This document shows positions 3,246-37,796 of a stretch of DNA of 64,000 bases, in pieces. The stretch is from Escherichia phage phiWec188. Each line of letters opens with the position of its first letter. The first letter of the stretch is position 1. The stretch is from the sequence record LC739537.1, one strand, 5' to 3'. The position numbers and the translations under genes were made by a program. Under the pieces are notes generated by a model. It worked only from the letters and a program-made list of their open reading frames with translations, was not told the DNA's origin and ran no database searches.

Positions 3246-3467
3246 ATGGGTGTTGTTGCAGGTGTTCTGGCAGTAGTTATCGTGTTTGTTCTGGCTTTCC
3301 TGATCAGTATGATTCCAGCATGGCTTCTGCTGCTGGCTTATAACTACGTTGTTGAAATGATGGGTCACACAGATATCACTGTTCCTATCACCTTCTGGAC
3401 TGTGGTGTGTGTGGCATTTATCATGGCTGTACTACGTGGGATCTTTTCCTCAAGTTCTTCAAAATAA
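3246..3467 (+). CDS. small hydrophobic membrane protein
   Basis: 73 aa, two predicted transmembrane stretches; AGAGGAGAA RBS. Confidence 0.5.
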   Translation: MGVVAGVLAVVIVFVLAFLISMIPAWLLLLAYNYVVEMMGHTDITVPITFWTVVCVAFIMAVLRGIFSSSSSK

Positions 3468-11287: not shown

Positions 11288-11316
11288 TTGCAAAAACGCC
11301 TCTCATGTGTTATACT
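11288..11316 (+). promoter_or_regulatory. sigma70 promoter candidate with extended -10 (TTGCAA -35, 17-nt spacer, TGtTATACT)
   Basis: TG dinucleotide one base upstream of TATACT; good spacing; upstream of hydrolase gene. Confidence 0.5.
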
Positions 11317-11347: not shown

Positions 11348-11869
11348 TTGCTGATAAAAAACTTTGTAACAGTTGCGTTACTATCCTTAACTGCTTTTAC
11401 ATTTACACCTGTCACGGCAACCGCCGAAGCTGCAAACGTAAAGACTGCTAAAGTAGTTCACAAATGTGCAAAGCAAGATACTAAAGAAAATCTCTTAGCT
11501 TGTGCAATTTACGCTGAAAGTCGTAATCAGGGTAAACGTGGAATGTATGCTGTAGGTAACGTAGTATTGAACAGGAAAGGTGATGATTACTTCCCTGACA
11601 ATATTAAAGATATTCTCTTCCAACGGGGACAATTCTCTTACAGGAAGAAGTTTAACGTTACTGAAGCAGAGCGATGGAAAGAAGCTAAAGCTATCGCAAA
11701 ACGACTTATATACCTGGATACAAACTTCCCTACACTTAGAGAAGCCCAGGACATGACAAAAGGTGCGACATTTTTTAAGAAAGTAAAAACCCGTGCACAC
11801 TGGACAAAAGATATGGTCTTAGTGTATCGTTATAAAGAACATCAGTTCTACTCACCGACAAGGAGCTAA
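11348..11869 (+). CDS. SleB-type cell-wall hydrolase with N-terminal signal peptide (endolysin candidate)
   Basis: TTG start 7 nt after AAGGAGG; LIKNFVTVALLSLTAFTFTPVTATAEA signal-like leader; AIYAESRNQ...GMYAVGNVVLNR hydrolase motifs. Confidence 0.6.
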   Translation: MLIKNFVTVALLSLTAFTFTPVTATAEAANVKTAKVVHKCAKQDTKENLLACAIYAESRNQGKRGMYAVGNVVLNRKGDDYFPDNIKDILFQRGQFSYRKKFNVTEAERWKEAKAIAKRLIYLDTNFPTLREAQDMTKGATFFKKVKTRAHWTKDMVLVYRYKEHQFYSPTRS

Positions 11870-28327: not shown

Positions 28328-31300
28328 TTATGTCGTCGGAGTATCAATCACCGGAGTAGGACGAATTACCGCAGTGTTACCAACCGCAACGTTGCTTGAG
28401 CTATTAGGAATAGTTGTGATACGTACTCCTGCTGCTGTTGCTGTTTGGATAGGATCTGCAATATCCACCTTCACTGGGTTGGTCCAAGTGTCGTTATCCT
28501 GATAAGGGGCACGAGTGATTACTGTGTCCAAATCAGATCCGCCTGGACCTGCACCTGCGATACGGATACGTGTACCTGCTGACAGTGGGTAATGATATAA
28601 CCAAGAAGCATTTGTCGCTGTACCGTTAGGTGTCAGGTTCTGCACAATCGATTTATCACCAACATTTGTCGCTCGGATACCGAAGGCTGGAATGTCTGGG
28701 ATGTACGCACCACTTGTTGTTACAAGGAAGAACGTGTTGTCTGCTTTAACGATAATATCCCCTTTATCGAATTCTTTCCCTGTTGGGAAGTGCATCCCGT
28801 CAATGTTACGACCTGGGATTGCTTCGATGTAGTAAGATTTACCAGTAGAGCCTACCAGAGCACCAATACCACCTGCGATGTTCGTATACATGTTAGCTTC
28901 AACGTTACAGTTGATACGATGAATATCCGAGTAACGGCAACGACTCCATTGAGGACGTCCAGTTACCATTGTGTTTCCATTCGGGTAACAGTTTACGTTC
29001 ACCATCTCCAGAACTGACTTCTCTCTACGGAAGAATCCATCGTAGAAAGTACCTGGACCAGATTCAGGTTGACCCACACACTCGAAAGAGTTACAAGTGA
29101 TGTTTGCCATTGACAACCAAGAAGCGATACCAAACAATTGCAGAGCGTTACAACGGATGTTATCGAAGCTAACACGGTTCTCAAAACCTGGACCCGCTGA
29201 TACACCAGCGAACACACGACCTGTGGCAGTATGAACGTTACGTACCGAGTAGTTGAAGCAAGGGTTTGATGGACGACCCTGTGCAGGAACAACAGGTTTA
29301 CCGTCTTCACCTAAAACTGCGTTTGTACCCCATTCCAGATAAATCATACGGATTGCACTTGGCAACGTACTGTCGTCTGTAATAGGCTCACCATAAACAC
29401 CGTCGATAGTAAAGTCTTTACAACCGTACATTACAACAGCACCAGTTGCCAGACCTGTACCAACAGAAACTGTTTGGTCAGGATCGCCGTGGATGTTCTG
29501 GATAGAAATGTTACGACCAACTTCTACGTGAACAATCTGGCGGCAACGTTTCGCAAATACGTTACGGATTGTAATGTTCTTACAATACTGCGTATCTGGA
29601 ATGTCATAACCGTATGGACCTTTACCTGCTACACCGATACCGATACCCCAGTTGGAAAGAGGAATTGGTGCGTTCGTTCCGTCGATGTGAGACAAGTAGA
29701 TGTTCTCAATAACACAACCTTCATCGTAATGCTTGTTGATTACGTTCAGTTCGATTGCATCCCCTTGCATATCCATGAACGTCAAGTTACGGAAGACACC
29801 GCGACTAACTGGTTCACCAGTACCTTGTTGAAGGATACCGTAAAGTCCGTTTTTAAACGTACAGTTGTCAATCTCAAAAGTACCTGGAATTGGGTTGCCC
29901 TGGAATACCAAGCTACCAACCTGTCCGGCACGAGGTGCACCATCCCACAAGCAGTCGTAGATACGCACATCGCCACCCCAGTACATTACACGGGAGTTGC
30001 GGAAAGTTGTACCTTCCACTTTACAGTTTTGTAAACGGTAGTCACGTTGTCCACGGAAGACACCTCCAAGAAGGGTGATCCCAGTAATATCAAAAGAACT
30101 TGTAGTGAAGGTCATATCACAACCATAAGCATTCAGGATCTTGCTTTTGGTTGCTGCTGTTGCCACGAGAGCCGCTTGGAAAGCTGCTTCTGGAGTAGCG
30201 TACACTGCACTGTTTGCAAACTCGGACAGGTAAACAACATCAAACAGATCATCAAACTTACCACCGTGTGGAGTTAACAGACCTTCTGTGTTTGTCAGTA
30301 CCCAAGCATTTGGACCTACGCCGCCAGAGGAGGCAAGGGTATCACTTGCAGAGAGAGTTTTTGGCAAAGGGCCAGCCCAACGATAACGACCTGCACCCAT
30401 GCCGATAGTCTGGTGTTTGAGTGTCAGGGTAACTTCATTACCGAAGCTGGTAGGCAGATGTACATATTGCTGACGTTCAACTGCTAATGCTGCCAAGTCA
30501 ACAGTACCAGAAGAGTGGGTAAGAACACCAGTATCTGATAAGCTAACAAATGTCCCAGTTAAACCAGGTGGCAGGGTGTAAGCTATTTGGTTAGTGGCAT
30601 CATACAGGGCTTTCAGACCTACTAAAGCTTGTCCTGATTTTGCGTAAGCCACTTCATAATTCAGGAAACCATATTTACGAGCGATTGTCTGAAGAGGAAC
30701 AGCGTTCATATCTTCGGTCAATGTTTCAGTAGTTGTTTCCAGGTTAGAAATTCGGTTTTCGAGGTTAGGATCGTTTTCTGCGCTTGCTACAATCTTACCG
30801 ATGTAAGCAAACAACTGATTAGGTAATCCAGTTGCAGGATCGTGTCCAAGTGGTTCGGACAAGATGATCTGACTGTTCTCAATACGGAAGGCATCACCCA
30901 CAATCTGGATAACGCCGTTGATAGTCACAATAGCACTATCGAACACATAAGGAGGACTGATTACTTTTTCATAACCTGTTGCAGAGGTATACAGCCAAGG
31001 AATAACTTCACTTGGCAGTTGTTCAGTCTGCATTCCCCACAGCACCCAGTTATTGTCCCCGACTGGAGTCCCTTGCATTGGGATAGGGTTCACCAGTGTT
31101 GCTGCTGGAGCGTAGTAGTATCCACTCAAGATTCCGTTCTGATAGAAACGGAGTTGGTTGAATACTGTTTCATTGGTCCCTTGCGCCCAGGCAATAGGAC
31201 TTTTGAAGTAAAAGTTATCAACCAAAGCCTTACGTAAAGTCGGAATCAATCCTGATTCCGTGTCAATACTTTCTGTTGCGCTTCCGTTGATGATATCGTG

Positions 31301-31378
31301 TATCTGGTTAGAAGAGAAGATTACCAGATCTACGCCCTGTTCCAAGGACGTAGCGGGATATGTTGGGAATAGTGTCAT
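28328..31378 (-). CDS. large tail fibre/tailspike protein, probable beta-helix (depolymerase-like) central domain
   Basis: 1016 aa; Asn/Gly-rich repetitive beta-strand segments (IDNCTFKNG..., NITIRNVFAKRC...) typical of right-handed beta-helix. Confidence 0.5.
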   Translation of the reverse strand: MTLFPTYPATSLEQGVDLVIFSSNQIHDIINGSATESIDTESGLIPTLRKALVDNFYFKSPIAWAQGTNETVFNQLRFYQNGILSGYYYAPAATLVNPIPMQGTPVGDNNWVLWGMQTEQLPSEVIPWLYTSATGYEKVISPPYVFDSAIVTINGVIQIVGDAFRIENSQIILSEPLGHDPATGLPNQLFAYIGKIVASAENDPNLENRISNLETTTETLTEDMNAVPLQTIARKYGFLNYEVAYAKSGQALVGLKALYDATNQIAYTLPPGLTGTFVSLSDTGVLTHSSGTVDLAALAVERQQYVHLPTSFGNEVTLTLKHQTIGMGAGRYRWAGPLPKTLSASDTLASSGGVGPNAWVLTNTEGLLTPHGGKFDDLFDVVYLSEFANSAVYATPEAAFQAALVATAATKSKILNAYGCDMTFTTSSFDITGITLLGGVFRGQRDYRLQNCKVEGTTFRNSRVMYWGGDVRIYDCLWDGAPRAGQVGSLVFQGNPIPGTFEIDNCTFKNGLYGILQQGTGEPVSRGVFRNLTFMDMQGDAIELNVINKHYDEGCVIENIYLSHIDGTNAPIPLSNWGIGIGVAGKGPYGYDIPDTQYCKNITIRNVFAKRCRQIVHVEVGRNISIQNIHGDPDQTVSVGTGLATGAVVMYGCKDFTIDGVYGEPITDDSTLPSAIRMIYLEWGTNAVLGEDGKPVVPAQGRPSNPCFNYSVRNVHTATGRVFAGVSAGPGFENRVSFDNIRCNALQLFGIASWLSMANITCNSFECVGQPESGPGTFYDGFFRREKSVLEMVNVNCYPNGNTMVTGRPQWSRCRYSDIHRINCNVEANMYTNIAGGIGALVGSTGKSYYIEAIPGRNIDGMHFPTGKEFDKGDIIVKADNTFFLVTTSGAYIPDIPAFGIRATNVGDKSIVQNLTPNGTATNASWLYHYPLSAGTRIRIAGAGPGGSDLDTVITRAPYQDNDTWTNPVKVDIADPIQTATAAGVRITTIPNSSSNVAVGNTAVIRPTPVIDTPTT

Positions 31379-31384
31379 TTATAA

Positions 31385-31720
31385 TTAACCCTTACTCTGT
31401 GTACGTTTAGTAATATCCTCTAACATCATCTGGATCGTTGCATTCTTGAGGTCCATGATTTTTTCAATCTTCTGCTCAAGAGTAGTATTGTTCGCCAGTA
31501 ATGTAGAGTTAATCTGATTCAGCATTTGAGTAAGTTCAGCTTTCGTTGCGTAAGTGGATTCGACGAAAACAAGTTTCTTTTCCAACTCACGGGCCTTGTC
31601 TTCGACCTTCTCCAAATCAACACCAAACTTATCTATTTTTTGTTTAAACAGGAACCAGATTAAACCGATTAGAGGGATGATTGCGTCCTTAGCAAGACCC
31701 CAGACTTCTTGAAATTCCAT
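31385..31720 (-). CDS. small protein with N-terminal transmembrane helix and coiled coil
   Basis: AIIPLIGLIWFLF hydrophobic segment followed by heptad-like region. Confidence 0.4.
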   Translation of the reverse strand: MEFQEVWGLAKDAIIPLIGLIWFLFKQKIDKFGVDLEKVEDKARELEKKLVFVESTYATKAELTQMLNQINSTLLANNTTLEQKIEKIMDLKNATIQMMLEDITKRTQSKG

Positions 31721-31731
31721 ATTTGCATCCC

Positions 31732-32277
31732 TTATTTTGTTGGTAGGGTAGGCCAGTTAACCTCGTAAGGATATCCCTCTTGAAGAGGCACACGGTTCAA
31801 TTCCACAACATAAATCTGGAGTTGCTTCAGTTCCGCAAGTTCTTCAGGTGTCGCTATCTCAAGGTCTTTTGCATATTGCAAAGGAGTGATAAGGGCAACG
31901 GCTGCTTCTTGCTTATTCTTTATTTCAGCAGAAACCTTGACAATCATTTGTTCACGACTATACTCTTTATCTTTCAGTGTAAGAGTGTCCAAGTCTAAAA
32001 CCTTGTCACGGATATCTTCGAAGCTTGTAATCTCGAAATCAACTTGTGCAAGAGACATGTTTTCGGGACACAATAGAGTAGGATCTGTGTTCCAAAAAAC
32101 TATACGGTTTTGCTCATCAAATACGACTTTCATTTTATCGTTCTGTAGCAAACCATCGCGCAATTCATACCAATCAATACCCTGGTCGCAAAGTAGGAAC
32201 AAAATGTTCTCTACTTCTACGAGTTCTCTTAGGGCGGGATCTTCTGGGATATACTTCTTAAAATTAGTGTAGAGCAT
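31732..32277 (-). CDS. tail fibre assembly/chaperone-like protein
   Basis: position immediately downstream of a fibre gene; size ~180 aa. Confidence 0.4.
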   Translation of the reverse strand: MLYTNFKKYIPEDPALRELVEVENILFLLCDQGIDWYELRDGLLQNDKMKVVFDEQNRIVFWNTDPTLLCPENMSLAQVDFEITSFEDIRDKVLDLDTLTLKDKEYSREQMIVKVSAEIKNKQEAAVALITPLQYAKDLEIATPEELAELKQLQIYVVELNRVPLQEGYPYEVNWPTLPTK

Positions 32278-33339
32278 TTAGCCTCCAATATCGTACCAGT
32301 TTCCGTTCACGTTTCGCTGGAGACGTTTGAAGTAAACACCACCAATGTTATCCGCAGAACTACGACCTGTTTCCTGAACAATAATACCAGAAAGAACATA
32401 GCCGGAAGAACAAATATATGTCCAAGACACTTCGTTACCTGGTGGGTAATATACGCCTTGGCTGGTATAACGTATGTCACGAACAAAATTACCATTCGCA
32501 TAGTTATAGTTGTTACTGATCTGGTTTTGCAAGTTACTGTTCACGCTGTCAATACGTGAGTTCAAGTTATTGTTAACGTTGTTCAGGTTGTTTTGAACAG
32601 AGTTAATATTCGTTTGCAAGGTGTTCTGTAAAGAGCTTAAACGTGAGTTCAAGTAATCTAAACGAACCAGAGCATTACCGTTCCCAGTATCTTGTCCACT
32701 ATTAGATCGTGGATTATCAATCAGAACATAACCGCCATCATATAAACGCACTGCACAGGATACGTTACCACTGGTAGGGTTCCTGCGGTATATATAAAGA
32801 TGACCGCCATTATTGTACTCGGAAGAAATCTCTCCGTTAGTTTGCCCTGCAAAGTTTTTAAAGAATATTGTAGCAGGATCTGAAGTAGCTGTACCGTTTA
32901 CGTAAACATCTCCAGCATAAATAGCGCCGCCGCCGTCACGTTTAACCAATACATTAGGGGTTACTGTGGTGCTTGTTGCATCTGTGATGTTAGAGGATAA
33001 GTGGTTGTGACTGTTGTCTACAACTTGAATAGAAAGCGTTACTGCTGCATTCCCGTTCCAGGTTACTTCGCCTGTTGCATCCCCTGCCATTGTTATCTTA
33101 GTACCAACCAGGGGAAGATATGTATTTGGTAATGTTGGAAGGAATTCATCAACCAAGTAACGAATCCATAATCCGTTATTGTTGAGTATCCAGTTCATTT
33201 CTTCACATGTCATGATTTGACCATAATCCATACCCACGGTACGAATGATTTCTTTAGGTCGAATCTTGTTCATGTTTTGTGTTCCTGGGAGGGTAACTGT
33301 TTCTACAGCCCAATCAGGATAGTAAATTGGCTTCGCCAT
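32278..33339 (-). CDS. tail fibre protein (Asn-rich coiled region)
   Basis: NSRLSSLQNTLQTNINSVQNNLNNVNNNLNSRIDSVNSNLQNQI heptad-like fibre shaft. Confidence 0.5.
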   Translation of the reverse strand: MAKPIYYPDWAVETVTLPGTQNMNKIRPKEIIRTVGMDYGQIMTCEEMNWILNNNGLWIRYLVDEFLPTLPNTYLPLVGTKITMAGDATGEVTWNGNAAVTLSIQVVDNSHNHLSSNITDATSTTVTPNVLVKRDGGGAIYAGDVYVNGTATSDPATIFFKNFAGQTNGEISSEYNNGGHLYIYRRNPTSGNVSCAVRLYDGGYVLIDNPRSNSGQDTGNGNALVRLDYLNSRLSSLQNTLQTNINSVQNNLNNVNNNLNSRIDSVNSNLQNQISNNYNYANGNFVRDIRYTSQGVYYPPGNEVSWTYICSSGYVLSGIIVQETGRSSADNIGGVYFKRLQRNVNGNWYDIGG

Positions 33340-33348
33340 TGGAACTCC

Positions 33349-33978
33349 TTAATAGATTTGTTTCAGAAGCATACACATGCGTCCAGTTTCATCCCCTGTA
33401 GATTCCAAGTACAAGGAACCCAAACCACCAATACCGTGAGGATCTTTGGTAGCGTAATAAGAGGTGAATCCAAAAGCTGATCCGGCTTTAGCTCCCAGTC
33501 GGTAGTTGCTTATAATTGGGAACACACTTAAAAGTTGCTCAAGAGCTTGATCAGACTGAAGACACAAGTTATAAAAGAACACATCAAAGGATTTATTCAA
33601 CCCAACATATGTGTTAATTGTATCTCGTTTTGTACCTGTGAAACGGGCGAAGATATCAATAATGTCCCCACGAGTCCCCGAAGAGGCAACACGATAAGCC
33701 CTGATTTTTAAAATTGTGCGGTACTCTTCATCATCAGAACCATTTCGTTCAATACCCATCTCTTCACCAAGGAGATCAAGATAATCCCCTGTGGCTGTAG
33801 ATATTAAACGGTGTTTAGCAAGATAGATCATTGCCTGATCTATCTTTTGCTTTTCACTTGATACGATGTAGAGGAGCTTGACAATGTTAGGGGAAGATTT
33901 AAAATCTTCAATCAACAGATCTTTAACGTCTTCATTGATATTCTCCCAAGTCGTTACATGGTCAACACTCACTGCCAT
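33349..33978 (-). CDS. baseplate/tail structural protein (putative)
   Basis: position within baseplate block. Confidence 0.35.
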   Translation of the reverse strand: MAVSVDHVTTWENINEDVKDLLIEDFKSSPNIVKLLYIVSSEKQKIDQAMIYLAKHRLISTATGDYLDLLGEEMGIERNGSDDEEYRTILKIRAYRVASSGTRGDIIDIFARFTGTKRDTINTYVGLNKSFDVFFYNLCLQSDQALEQLLSVFPIISNYRLGAKAGSAFGFTSYYATKDPHGIGGLGSLYLESTGDETGRMCMLLKQIY

Positions 33979-33980
33979 TT

Positions 33981-35468
33981 TTAGACTCCATACTCGTAGG
34001 AAATGTTATCAAGGTCGAAAGACGGGACAATATTGTAGGCAGGAACAATGTTTCCTTCTGTATATTTACTGTCGTCTTCATTATTAAGTTTAACATAAAC
34101 ACGGAGAGAAGTCAAGCGCCCAAAAGCAAGTGCTGCATAAATAACGCCTTTAATCTGGTCGTTAGTTACAGAAGAACCCAATTCGAAGTAGGCTTGCAGG
34201 TTATCCAGTGCTTCAACAATGTTTTCTTTCTCTGTCCCGCTTAACGTTGTACCATTGATTGTCTGGTATACAAGTTTCAAGGAGTACGTTGCAGTAGCAC
34301 CAGGAGAGAAGCGGATAATCTCTTGTCCACCATCTTCCGTCATGACAGTAATGTTAGTTGTGCCATAAGTCAAGGTATTGATTGGTTTAGTGTCGTAAAT
34401 TACTTTAGCAACTTCTTCGGCACTCCCACCGTACACGATTGTCTGGAAACTCATTGCAGGTGCATGTTCCTGATCGTGGATTGTTGGGTTGTCGTAAATC
34501 TTAACCTTGGTTACGCCGTCAGTCTGCAACAAAGCTTTAATGATAGCTGCGCGTGTACCTGCGTTTGCTTCATCAAGGTTATCGTTGAAACGTGAGCGGA
34601 ACTCTGCATCTGTCTCTACATCTCGTCCTGAAGAGAAAGCATAAAAGTTACCAGAATCAAGGTAGCCTGTGAAGGTTGAAGAGATCCCAGAAATGGATTC
34701 CACACCTACCGGATTGTACCCTGCTTCTGATCCTACCACCGGAACTTCACTCCACTTCGTCCCGACAGGAACAGAAGCATAGAATTTTATTGGTGTTACC
34801 AAACCAACAGGTTCTACATCTCCCGCTGCTGCGAAGCCAACGTAAACGTTACTTGCGTCTGTATGGATTAAATCACGATCCGTAGTGGAGAGGTTGTCTC
34901 GAATAAAGTTTGCAAGATCTGTAATGAATGTCGAAGAAGCTGGAGAGAGTACACGACTATTCAAACCACCATCATTTGCACTTTGTGCGTAGAAAGTTAT
35001 GTTAGCCACTCCTGTAGCTGTTGCATTCGCACGCGAGATTTGATATGCTGCTATCTTAGCATTCAACATGGTAGGTGCGCTGACATAATAGTTCATGTCG
35101 TTGTCTGCATTAAAATACGTATCCGTGCCAAGTTCAAAAGTCCAAGGGGCTTTGTTGTTGCTTTTCACATAAGCAAAACCTGAACCAGGTGCAGCGGCAG
35201 AACGATAGAAACCACGTTTGGAGAAGATTTCATCAAGGTAAATACCTTCAGCACCATCCAGTGTCTGGGTATTATAAACTCCTTGCATTCCTTCCCATAA
35301 TGTGTAGTCGGTATAAGCAATAATACGGAACAACTGTCCGAAGACAGTATCCTCCGAAGTCGCTGCATCGGCACCAAAAGTGTTCTTAAGTGCAGTCATA
35401 TAGTTGTTAAGTACATCATCGAATGTCGGGATTACAAATCCCGCATCGGTTAAGCCATATTCATCCAT
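33981..35468 (-). CDS. baseplate wedge protein (gpJ-like, putative)
   Basis: size and position in baseplate block. Confidence 0.35.
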   Translation of the reverse strand: MDEYGLTDAGFVIPTFDDVLNNYMTALKNTFGADAATSEDTVFGQLFRIIAYTDYTLWEGMQGVYNTQTLDGAEGIYLDEIFSKRGFYRSAAAPGSGFAYVKSNNKAPWTFELGTDTYFNADNDMNYYVSAPTMLNAKIAAYQISRANATATGVANITFYAQSANDGGLNSRVLSPASSTFITDLANFIRDNLSTTDRDLIHTDASNVYVGFAAAGDVEPVGLVTPIKFYASVPVGTKWSEVPVVGSEAGYNPVGVESISGISSTFTGYLDSGNFYAFSSGRDVETDAEFRSRFNDNLDEANAGTRAAIIKALLQTDGVTKVKIYDNPTIHDQEHAPAMSFQTIVYGGSAEEVAKVIYDTKPINTLTYGTTNITVMTEDGGQEIIRFSPGATATYSLKLVYQTINGTTLSGTEKENIVEALDNLQAYFELGSSVTNDQIKGVIYAALAFGRLTSLRVYVKLNNEDDSKYTEGNIVPAYNIVPSFDLDNISYEYGV

Positions 35469-35737
35469 TACTCATCCTCTTTGTTGTGTTCAGGGGTGGA
35501 AGACCTACCCCAGCGCAGGTCTATTAGATTTTTCATTAGTCGTGAGGGAGTGACCATAAAAACAAAAGCCCAGCCCATCCATTCAGGAATTTCTTTTTCT
35601 ATTCCTAAAAAGATGAACATACCTGTCATTGTCATCATACCTACGGCGTTCCATACTTTAGTGGAACTTACCCCGTTTCCAGGGTAAGTACAAAACATTC
35701 CGCGAACAAACTTCTTAAACCCATTCTCTTTAGGCAT
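35468..35737 (-). CDS. small two-TMD membrane protein (holin-like topology)
   Basis: two hydrophobic helices and charged C-terminus; embedded in tail gene block. Confidence 0.35.
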
Positions 35738-37796
35738 AAACTGTATCCTGTAGGTAAACGTTTAAAGGAACATTGCCCATATAGAAAACTTGCGAATGAG
35801 AGTTGACCACAGTAATAGAGTCTTGCATTATTTGTGGGTAAGCCCATATATATTGCTTAAGACCTTCGAACTTGCTATTGTTCAGGACTATGTTCCCGAT
35901 GATCATTTTCCACAAATATGTGCGATAATTTGAATCAGGATCAAAGCCGTACAACGGTGCTAATGTGGCATCTGGTACGAACCCAGCCAAGTAGTGAATA
36001 TCTTCGTAAGGGAATCCCAAAGTCTCGTGCGGTATTGTTACGGCATCGTAGGCTTTAATCATCTTACCTTGAAGCAACCAATCATAACATTCAGAACAAT
36101 AGAAATCGAAAGCTTCTGGAATGTAGTAATCTTTAGGAAAGTTTACTTTCTCCATTAACCCGTTGCCAATGATCGAAGGTAAGAACGGAAGTAATGTCAC
36201 TTGAGCGCCTGGGTATGCAGCGCGTGTATCCGTTGCAAACTTGGTAACTCTCAAACCCAATTTACGAGACAAGAACTCGTAATACTGATCGTATGGGCTT
36301 CCTGTTTTATAGTTATCAATCGTCCCAGCATCTTGTGCAAACAAACCTGTTTCTGTATTGAAAGCCAGTTTTGTCGTATAATCATAAATGCAAGGCAGGT
36401 TGGTAGCTGTATTGTACCACCACCACGGTTCCCCAATTTGAATAACAACCGGAATGTCGTTAGTTGTGGAAATGGAGGCGATCTTGTTAATTACATTCTG
36501 AAGATATTGCATACCCTCATCAATTGTAGGAGACAACACATAGCTCGGAGGCACATAACCTGTAGCAGCTAAAGCATCGTTCCAATCGTGCTGCACCCAC
36601 TCAACAGGGCAGACTGTGCTCATCAATTCGAAACTCAAAGAGTTCATAACTGTGTAGCCGGAGGCTTTGGCGATTGCATGGAAGCTGTTCAACCACGCTT
36701 CAGTCGCTGGGTTAAGAAACACGGAAGTGTTTAATTGCCAGCCATCATTGCCGTCCCATTCAAACTGGTAGTAGTGCGACATTCCGTTGTAATGGTTTAT
36801 CATACCACGATACCCTAAAGCATAAGTGTTGGAAATAACACGTTCAGGGGTAAGATTATACATGTCATCGTAAGATGTGCACATACGAATATCGTGTGCT
36901 GCTTGCACCAAATTGCTAACGTCCATCTGACTAAACCCAGTGTCAGGTTCAAGCAAAGTGAATTTCATTGACGACTGCATATTGTTCATCTGAACAATTT
37001 CTGTTATGTCTTGGTAGCGTGTCGTGATCAATGAGAAGAAGAAATTGTCCACCTGTGTGGTGTCCACTTCAATATCATTGTTCGGTCCAGACTTAATATT
37101 ACTAAAGTCTAAGCGGATATCTGCTGTTTTGCCATCTTCTGATACATTGAAAGCATAATAACTCAAATCAATGTAGTGAATCGTCTTATCAACCAATGTT
37201 AAAGTAATAGTTGGGATCAACGGAGCATCATTGAACCCTGGCATGTTTGCACTAAGTTCTAATTTAAACCAGAGCTTCTCTTCACTTAAATCTTGGTGAG
37301 GAAGAAAACCTACGCCCTTATGATCAAAGGTGTCTGTTGTGTGCCAAATAACACCTGCCAAACCTGCTGCTGTACGGTTAACAAAGTACGCCGTAAAGGA
37401 ATCCCCACTGGAAATTATGGAACAACTCTCTGTTGCTTGGGAGTCGATAGTCCAGAACTTAGGAGAGAACATTTTAGCTTTGGTTGAGGTCCATGTAATC
37501 GGAGTGGTGTTCTCTTGTCTCGTCGTAATGACACACTCGATCTTGGTTTCAACCATCGTGTTGTTTTCGCTGATACCAGAAACTTCTAAAAAGAAGTTAA
37601 TATCTATTGAGTTTTTTGGTCGTTCGTAAACATCAACCACAATTGTTGCAGAGTCGGCGTTAGCAGGGAACACTAAGGTTCCCGACTTCGCTACATAATC
37701 TCTACCGGAGACTGCCGTTCCATCGACAGTCTTGTAGTTGAACGAACTCACATTTACTCGTTTGTCTCTTGTGACAGTAAATGTTGCCTGTTTCAT
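35730..37796 (-). CDS. tail/baseplate structural protein
   Basis: 688 aa ORF in structural block. Confidence 0.4.

Follow-up and report, generated by a model that had tools for sequence, protein, structure and literature searches.

Two conserved small membrane proteins encoded among the baseplate and tail-fibre genes of Escherichia phage phiWec188 and their possible part in lysis control

Among described lysis proteins, the releasin of phage Mu, gp25, is a late protein of 99 residues that has an N-out/C-in topology, four periplasmic residues, and a dibasic junction, and that frees a membrane-tethered signal-anchor-release (SAR) endolysin (Chamblee et al. 2022, PMC9239132). Releasins of this kind, which carry the DUF2730 domain, were reported only in transposable phages (PMC9239132). 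Here, we describe two small proteins, p89 and p111, encoded in a stretch of 64,000 nucleotides from Escherichia phage phiWec188 (LC739537.1; the window), where their genes lie within the minus-strand late structural block for the baseplate and tail fibres. We take the window phage to be a relative of phAPEC8 and phi92. Many phages of the rV5/PVP-SE1/phAPEC8/phi92 group have been proposed for therapy and biocontrol, and papers on this group either call its holin not identifiable or name differing putative candidates (rV5 gp129, CB7_82, and two small BME3 proteins). Tentatively, we propose that p89 and p111 would form a late-expressed, non-virion lysis-control module of the inner membrane, in which p111 is releasin-like and p89 is possibly a holin, a pinholin, or a regulator.

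The p89 and p111 genes, their cassette, and their products

The two reading frames and their predicted parts are, in window coordinates, as follows.

35468-35737, minus strand: p89, small membrane protein of 89 residues, homologue of phi92 gp144 (phrog_1322, E = 1.8e-25)
35600-35656, minus strand: p89 hydrophobic helix 1, residues 28-46 (Kyte-Doolittle hydropathy (KD) 1.54, family mean 1.21; AlphaFold2 helix 25-47)
35543-35581, minus strand: p89 second hydrophobic segment, residues 53-65 (13 residues), starting at the conserved E52-W53 motif; transmembrane (TM) status doubtful
31385-31720, minus strand: p111, predicted bitopic membrane protein of 111 residues, homologue of phi92 gp149 (phrog_15210, E = 3e-66)
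31649-31705, minus strand: p111 N-terminal TM helix, residues 6-24 (KD 1.69)
31397-31639, minus strand: p111 coiled-coil domain, residues 28-108, predicted cytoplasmic (heptad test and alignments; family motif E-S-T-Y-A-T-K-A-E-L)

A first-pass annotation of the sequence had given both genes exactly these coordinates and placed them in the tail/baseplate block, and the list of open reading frames (ORFs) and the gene order agree. Along the direction of transcription, the block runs through a spike, the sheath initiator, a 157-residue protein, a 970-residue tail protein, and a 688-residue Calx-beta/'non-contractile tail sheath protein' (NCTSP) protein to p89, and from there through wedge J, wedge I, a fibre, the Caudo_TAP assembly protein, and p111 to a colanidase-type tailspike and further fibres. 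Here, the stop codon of p89 and the start of the wedge (baseplate J-like) gene share 1 nt, and p111 is found directly 3' of the tail-fibre assembly gene.

Over positions 31000-36000 (5 kb), the window is 100% identical to Escherichia phage phiWec190 (LC739539.1) and shares about 79% identity with phAPEC8-type genomes of the genus Phapecoctavirus (Stephanstirmvirinae). Compared with these 79%-identical relatives, the proportion of synonymous differences (pS) in p89 and p111 is saturated at 0.67-0.79, against a proportion of nonsynonymous differences (pN) of 0.06-0.12 (0.06 for p89), which is as low as that of the neighbouring wedge proteins. Because pN is low against a saturated pS, and because both families are kept across subfamilies, p89 and p111 are genuine genes under strong purifying selection. 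Promoter and terminator scans around the two genes gave counts at the shuffle background, with no independent transcription signal.

Homologues of p89 occur in 371 phage records, and its sole PHROG match, family 1322 (labelled 'membrane protein'), is distributed throughout the rV5-like myoviruses, that is, the Stephanstirmvirinae, the Vequintavirinae (rV5, PVP-SE1, phiTE, CR3, and Klebsiella phages), and the Aeromonas Plateaulakevirus. The counterpart of p111 in the Vequintavirinae is PHROG 5345 (rV5 gp31, PVP-SE1 gene 44, and phiTE_238), which has the same architecture and position, shares the motif h-V/A-T-K-x-E/D-L with PHROG 15210, and is tied to it by reciprocal weak profile matches that are bridged by Klebsiella phage FBKp34. 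The assembly gene, the p111-like gene, a gene for a protein with four TM helices (4-TM; Pfam Phage_phiTE_239), the p89-like gene, and a phiTE_241-type fibre gene are consecutive in PVP-SE1, phiTE, and many metagenomic relatives; in rV5, an extra fibre gene stands in place of the 4-TM gene. A census of IMG/VR neighbourhoods gave 43 credible loci, 27 of them with the joint p111-p89 cassette and 15 with the Stephanstirmvirinae form, wherein p89 is directly before wedge J and p111 still after the assembly gene (one locus was too truncated for classing). Moreover, a p111-like gene is present in every locus with enough flank. Gene order and profile comparison thus show p89 and p111 to be the two universally retained genes of a cassette that ancestrally held two or three genes for small membrane proteins and that belongs to the distal baseplate/tail-fibre operon of rV5-like myoviruses. 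Since the tailspike that follows p111 has a phiTE_241-type N-terminal domain, the window is best read as the ancestral cassette minus its 4-TM gene, with p89 relocated to just upstream of wedge J. A tblastn search of the window for the 4-TM (phiTE_239-type) gene gave nothing at E < 0.7, and the gene is kept in FBKp34 and in some metagenomic relatives. As a separate observation, one rV5-like contig (L166) has p111-like and 4-TM genes and no p89-like gene within 10 kb.

As far as the evidence goes, neither protein is a known part of the virion. In the virion mass spectrometry (MS) of phage CB7 (26 proteins), CB7_27-31, 36, and 37 were detected and CB7_32-35 were not; by gene order, the latter are the assembly protein and three membrane proteins, with the p111, 4-TM, and p89 equivalents being CB7_33-35. 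The 2026 cryo-electron microscopy (cryo-EM) study of phi92 lists gp134-139, 143, and 145-147, and leaves gp144 (the p89 homologue) and gp149 (the p111 homologue) unmentioned, as the phiTE cryo-EM study does gp238-240. Searched against PDB chains, the family profiles found none at E ≤ 1 for p89 and none at E ≤ 0.1 for p111, while the adjacent wedge J protein, as the positive control, matched phi92 gp145 (21vq) and phiTE wedge 2 (9cuy). One option of the first-pass annotation, that of membrane-active tail accessory proteins, is therefore unsupported by the CB7 MS, the cryo-EM papers, and the PDB search insofar as it means virion components, and one outcome that it had named as refuting its reading, detection in the virion, was not observed in the CB7 MS or in the phi92 and phiTE papers.

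For p111, the same annotation had described a single TM helix at the N-terminus together with a coiled coil, and this is borne out by the hydropathy of residues 6-24, by an AlphaFold2 model with a single helix (residues 3-109, predicted local distance difference test (pLDDT) 85), and by a heptad periodicity that was matched by only 2.9% of shuffles. None of the 51 family members has a lysine or arginine ahead of the TM helix, against a mean of 2.9 in the 15 residues that follow; in p111 itself, five residues precede the helix, the junction is KQK, and about 3-4 lysines or arginines occur in the next 15 residues. With no such residue before the helix and about three after it, p111 is predicted to be N-out/C-in and to have its coiled coil in the cytoplasm. 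The label 'lipoprotein' given to p111 by PHROG 15210 and RefSeq is wrong, because p111 has no cysteine and hence no lipobox cysteine, nor is there one within the first 30 residues in any of the 51 family members; a propagated mis-annotation is thereby corrected.

For p89, two TM helices and a class II holin-like topology with a charged tail had been suggested, and each suggestion stands in part. Helix 1 (residues 28-46) is moderately hydrophobic, with 32% Gly/Ala/Ser/Thr, and the second segment, at 13 residues and a KD of about 0.84-1.09 (family mean 0.84), is short and weak in all 102 family members. Here, the best 19-mer of the C-terminal part sums to +8.9 on the Hessa scale, a crude sum by which membrane insertion is not predicted. 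AlphaFold2 modelled p89 with low confidence (pLDDT 64), placing helices at 25-47, 52-62, and 65-75, and, among annotated homologues, the gene table of rV5 has no TM domain entry for gp29, and one TM helix is annotated for PVP-SE1 gene 42. In turn, the lysines and arginines of the family (4.5 in the N-terminal part, 0.6 in the loop, and 4.4 in the C-terminal part) agree with an N-in/C-in hairpin; the extreme C-terminal tail, however, is acidic, unlike the basic ones typical of holins. Over 102 sequences, W53, R75, and G77 are invariant, and S24, T26, K27, E52, W56, and an L-x-L-R-W-G motif are nearly so. Assignment of p89 to DUF2644 was rejected, as the tags are precomputed ones on a few homologues, a re-scan gave one match at E = 0.039 (below the cutoff), and there is no literature. 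A fold search with the low-confidence model was uninformative, its sole significant match being a viral protein of 56% identity. One metagenomic homologue (L169:901-1287) is extended at its C-terminus by about 50 residues, with Pro, Thr, and Ser abundant among them.

Two neighbours in the block bear features of their own.

35730-37796, minus strand: 688-residue protein with a Calx-beta domain and NCTSP N-terminal and TIM-barrel domains, in a contractile-tailed phage
28328-31378, minus strand: colanidase-type tailspike, of which the N-terminal ~115 residues match phrog_4549, the same PHROG as the phiTE_241 fibre

The gene for the 688-residue protein is missing from the 95%-identical PsgM04F, and the interval from the sheath initiator to p89 is a hot spot for inserted receptor-binding genes (endosialidase, tailspikes) across the subfamily. 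The phrog_4549 N-terminus common to the tailspike and the phiTE_241 fibre suggests that enzymatic heads are exchanged as modules while their adaptor is conserved. Elsewhere, the sign of the guanine-cytosine skew flips at about 24 kb, the point at which replication genes on the plus strand give way to the structural block on the minus strand. The search with positions 31000-36000 also returned records titled as Pseudomonas, Acinetobacter, and Campylobacter phages that are 79-95% identical to this coliphage region, and these titles probably reflect host mis-assignment or contaminant phages in those collections.

Lysis genes around distant p111 relatives and in the window

A p111 profile search of 1.84 billion representative proteins retrieved a small family only. 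Its distant members (phrog_15210 matches of 1e-7 to 1e-9; reciprocal tblastn 2e-5) have in common with p111 the motif (S/E)TYATKxEL, more broadly TY(A/V)T(K/S)xEL, and they lie near endolysins in four unrelated phage lineages. One of these relatives (P0194) is directly upstream of an Amidase_3 endolysin, which is followed by a protein with two TM helices (2-TM) and an i-spanin-like protein, and a second (P0196) is preceded by a DUF4376 gene and shares an overlap with a GH19 endolysin, with a 2-TM protein and a u-spanin-like lipoprotein behind. In Rhizobium phage RHph_X2_25, the order is Phage_lysozyme, a 65-residue 2-TM protein, a 133-residue 2-TM membrane protein, and the p111-like gene, with all junctions overlapping, and in Sinorhizobium phage AP-16-3 it is a weakly GH19-like protein (Glyco_hydro_19 E = 0.005, below the Pfam cutoff), Phage_holin_10, a 134-residue 2-TM protein, and the p111-like gene. 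As holin-like proteins are encoded separately in these distant cassettes, p111-type proteins would seem to be accessory factors of lysis and not its holin. The RHph_X2_25 endolysin (L172:1971-2897; Phage_lysozyme plus PG_binding_1) has a hydrophobic C-terminal segment at residues 263-281 (KD 1.84), and would be an unusual C-terminally anchored endolysin.

The window has these lysis genes or candidates outside the tail block.

11348-11869, plus strand: SleB-like cell-wall hydrolase (endolysin PHROGs 938 and 14642; mechanical ORF start 11288)
58983-59625, minus strand: overlapping spanins, i-spanin 59218-59625 (135 residues; phrog_4297, E = 2.9e-24) and o-spanin lipoprotein 58983-59309 (108 residues, lipobox LMMTGC; phrog_1267, E = 8.9e-17)
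3246-3467, plus strand: ORF of 73 residues in the early/middle region, with two very hydrophobic helices (KD 3.16 and 2.29; PHROG 16065)

That neither p89 nor p111 adjoins the hydrolase (11288/11348-11869, plus strand) or the spanins had been noted correctly in the first-pass annotation. The true start of the hydrolase is probably TTG 11348, with a strong ribosome-binding site, AAAGGAGG, 6 nt upstream, and the ORF start at 11288 probably lies too far upstream; its counterpart in the RefSeq relative is annotated as a 173-residue endolysin. The N-terminus, MLIKNFVTVALLSLTAFTFTPVTATAEA, is hydrophobic and resembles a Sec signal or a SAR domain, with the segment ending in A-E-A. By analogy with Mu, this hydrolase is a plausible candidate for the partner or client of p111. 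The phage also has a T4-lysozyme-like gene, located outside the window. The spanin pair directly precedes the gene for the large terminase, an arrangement also seen in T7- and SP6-like phages, and the assignment of the pair by PHROG matches as the recognised outer-membrane step of lysis is well supported.

The RefSeq annotation of the relative Mt1B1_P17 names no holin at any position. By its hydropathy, the 73-residue ORF is a more canonical 2-TM holin-like candidate than p89. In Mt1B1_P17, a gene for a TerC-like membrane protein is found just downstream of the apparent counterpart of this ORF. When p89 was compared with this ORF and with the 2-TM proteins of the distant lysis cassettes, hhalign gave E ≥ 0.03, i.e., no similarity.

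Lysis control weighed against other roles

In the scheme that we propose, p89 and p111 would be made late, together with the tail proteins, would insert into the host inner membrane, and would remain in the cell rather than be packaged in the virion. As a membrane-tethered cytoplasmic coiled coil, p111 would act like a releasin on the signal- or SAR-bearing SleB-like hydrolase, and p89, as a weakly hydrophobic hairpin or bitopic protein, might be a depolarising or hole-forming partner (holin or pinholin-like) or the regulator of one. The resulting layout would be dispersed, as in T7 and T4, with the hydrolase in the replication region, the spanins by the terminase, and the membrane lysis genes after tail-fibre genes. 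This retains a part of the earlier idea that the pair is the missing holin and antiholin, inasmuch as Mt1B1_P17 has no annotated holin, p89 and p111 are ancestrally adjacent, and distant p111 relatives lie near endolysins. The labels themselves fare less well, as p89 belongs to no holin family and has a weak second segment and an acidic tail, and p111 is predicted to be N-out/C-in and has relatives in cassettes with holins of their own.

Several points weigh against lysis control. In the window phage, neither gene adjoins a lytic enzyme, and p89 is translationally coupled to a structural gene and as strongly conserved as structural proteins are. Against Pfam, alignments of p111 and p89 gave only TM-like or coiled-coil noise; p89 itself found nothing at E ≤ 10, and its 102 family members gave one Phage_holin_9 match at E = 0.17. 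Homology of p89 with T7 gp17.5 was rejected, the hhalign values of E = 0.11-0.17 (single sequence and 23-sequence alignment) being not significant. From residue 78 onwards, the p89 tail has on average a net negative charge over the 102 sequences (mean -0.9, range -3 to +1), and rival holin candidates are at hand in the 73-residue ORF, rV5 gp129, and CB7_82. Among the distant cassettes, two also hold a separate holin-like 2-TM protein and a third a Pfam-recognised holin. Moreover, p111 has no match to DUF2730/phrog_736, and the spanin decoys used with hhalign (T7 gp18.5 at 0.041 and L162_140 at 0.079) came out level with Mu gp25. Small hydrophobic proteins such as these are also easily missed by gel-based MS and cryo-EM, and it is the ancestral linkage to p111, itself read from gene order, through which p89 would possibly have a role in lysis.

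A further such point is synteny, as p89 homologues lie in the baseplate/fibre block in 43/43 loci and beside the hydrolase or spanins in 0/43, which also speaks for a morphogenetic role. Here, the two would be non-virion chaperones or docking proteins that tether wedge and tail-fibre assembly to the inner membrane, p111 acting with the assembly protein and p89 with its downstream gene. Given the invariable embedding and the tight coupling of p89, we regard this as a serious rival, albeit an unlikely one. In fact, p89 always directly precedes wedge J or a phiTE_241-type fibre gene, with a gap of -1 to +16 nt, and p111 follows the Caudo_TAP gene wherever one exists; both are conserved as strongly as wedge proteins and are absent from virions, like the assembly protein, and the p111 coiled coil is predicted in the cytoplasm, which is the site of tail assembly. 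However, the downstream partner of p89 varies by subfamily (wedge J or fibre), so that a specific client is less likely, the cassette can do without its 4-TM member, and the distant p111 relatives belong to lysis cassettes, two of them without a nearby tail-fibre gene. To our knowledge, no membrane-anchored tail-fibre chaperone has been described, and T4 gp40 (portal) offers only a loose analogy for a membrane-anchored assembly factor.

Alternatively, p89 and p111 might protect the host membrane in the manner of 'moron' products, by superinfection exclusion, a block of DNA injection, or lysis-inhibition sensing, like T4 Imm/Sp/RI or HK97 gp15. Small superinfection exclusion proteins are similar in size and number of TM helices, and exclusion genes often adjoin receptor-binding genes. 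Yet p89 and p111 are kept whichever receptor-binding genes are present, and they sit in, and are coupled to, late structural operons of strictly virulent phages, with promoter-like sites at background frequency and no independent promoter signal standing out, where exclusion is needed early. The PHROG category of family 1322 is 'moron, auxiliary metabolic gene and host takeover', though this is merely a label, and while the Pro/Thr-rich extension of one p89 homologue could be periplasmic and rIIA/rIIB homologues occur in rV5 and PVP-SE1, p111 is predicted to be nearly without a periplasmic portion. On balance, we consider such protection improbable. Still far less probable is that the two are low-copy virion or ejection proteins of the tail or baseplate, inserted into the host envelope to aid DNA passage, because, even though their genes are in the tail module, their hydrophobic segments resemble those of membrane-inserting ejection proteins, and proteins that are small, hydrophobic, and of low copy number can go unseen in gel-based MS and in symmetrised cryo-EM maps, their equivalents went undetected in the CB7 virion, neither the phi92 and phiTE models nor any PDB chain includes their homologues, and the distant p111 relatives are lysis-cassette genes.

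If lysis control by p89 and p111 is taken a step further, the p111 superfamily (PHROGs 15210, 5345, 462, 7885, and relatives) might comprise widespread, unrecognised lysis regulators, that is, membrane-tethered cytoplasmic coiled coils analogous to but evolutionarily distinct from Mu releasins, which, with p89 and the optional 4-TM protein, would form an inner-membrane complex in rV5/phi92-like myoviruses and, being encoded within the baseplate/fibre operon, would tie lysis timing stoichiometrically to tail production. We hold this wider claim to be distinctly doubtful. In any case, the search for lysis genes in this phage group is narrowed to a conserved non-virion membrane cassette, one member of which is linked to lysis cassettes in unrelated phages.

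Comparison with known lysis proteins

An Rz-type i-spanin shares with p111 the N-terminal TM helix and the coiled coil, and there are weak PHROG matches to Rz-like families (phrog_739, E = 0.004), but p111 has the opposite predicted topology and no o-spanin gene embedded in or beside its own. A lipobox ORF was likewise not found embedded in or beside the genes of distant p111 relatives. The assignment of p111 as an i-spanin was rejected for its opposite charge topology and because the true i-/o-spanin pair is already at 58983-59625.

Compared with class II holins and pinholins (T7 gp17.5 and phage 21 S68), p89 is similarly small and lies in a late operon; its N-terminal part is basic and is followed by a first helix of weak hydrophobicity, a short loop that is acidic, a further hydrophobic stretch, and a hydrophilic tail, with charges that would suit an N-in/C-in hairpin, and it has the short motif F-x-G-L-x-L-x-E-W-F/Y in common with T7 gp17.5. 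In contrast, p89 matches no Pfam holin family, its second segment has 13 residues and is poorly hydrophobic, its tail is acidic instead of basic, and it has no adjacent endolysin. Moreover, its conserved residues (S24, T26, K27, E52, W53, R75, and G77) are interfacial polar or aromatic ones outside the membrane helix.

As for gene layout, the T7 holin gene follows a fibre gene and the T7 spanin genes are beside terminase genes, as are the spanin genes of the window phage. T4 likewise has dispersed lysis genes, in parallel to the window phage. Here, the gene for holin T is a single-TM lysis gene directly after tail-fibre genes 37 and 38 in a large virulent myovirus with its endolysin and spanins elsewhere, although T has 218 residues, an N-in/C-out topology, and a globular periplasmic domain, whereas p111 has 111 residues, a predicted N-out/C-in topology, and a coiled coil. 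No sequence similarity between p111 and T was seen in the PHROG and Pfam scans.

Relative to Mu gp25, p111 differs in that its gene is 20 kb from the hydrolase, among tail genes, and in that the heptad coiled coil that makes up its domain carries a STYATKAEL motif of its own. While Mu gp25 itself matches phrog_736 at 5e-33, PVP-SE1 gene 44 does so weakly (E = 0.0099). Homology between p111 and gp25, which a likeness seen by eye ('ETxYA(S/T)') had raised, was rejected at hhalign E = 0.013-0.045, and we keep the architectural analogy alone. This analogy covers a comparable size (111 and 99 residues), a late-operon context, a very short acidic or neutral N-terminus, a single TM helix that contains Pro and Gly and ends in Trp, a basic junction after the helix (KQK in p111, RR in gp25), and a helical C-terminal domain of about 75-85 residues, predicted to be cytoplasmic in p111, in an N-out/C-in protein. 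By prediction, then, p111 has the architecture of a releasin, namely a single N-terminal TM helix, N-out/C-in topology, a basic junction, and a cytoplasmic domain. The nearness to an endolysin gene that marks DUF2730 genes is lacking in the window phage, and is found among the distant p111 relatives of the four lineages, whose genes are within a few genes of an endolysin. In addition, the window phage encodes an exported hydrolase, the N-terminus of which is signal- or SAR-like. If p111 does work as a releasin, lysis genes would be embedded in, and co-translated with, baseplate genes, and the mechanism described for Mu gp25 would extend beyond the transposable phages.

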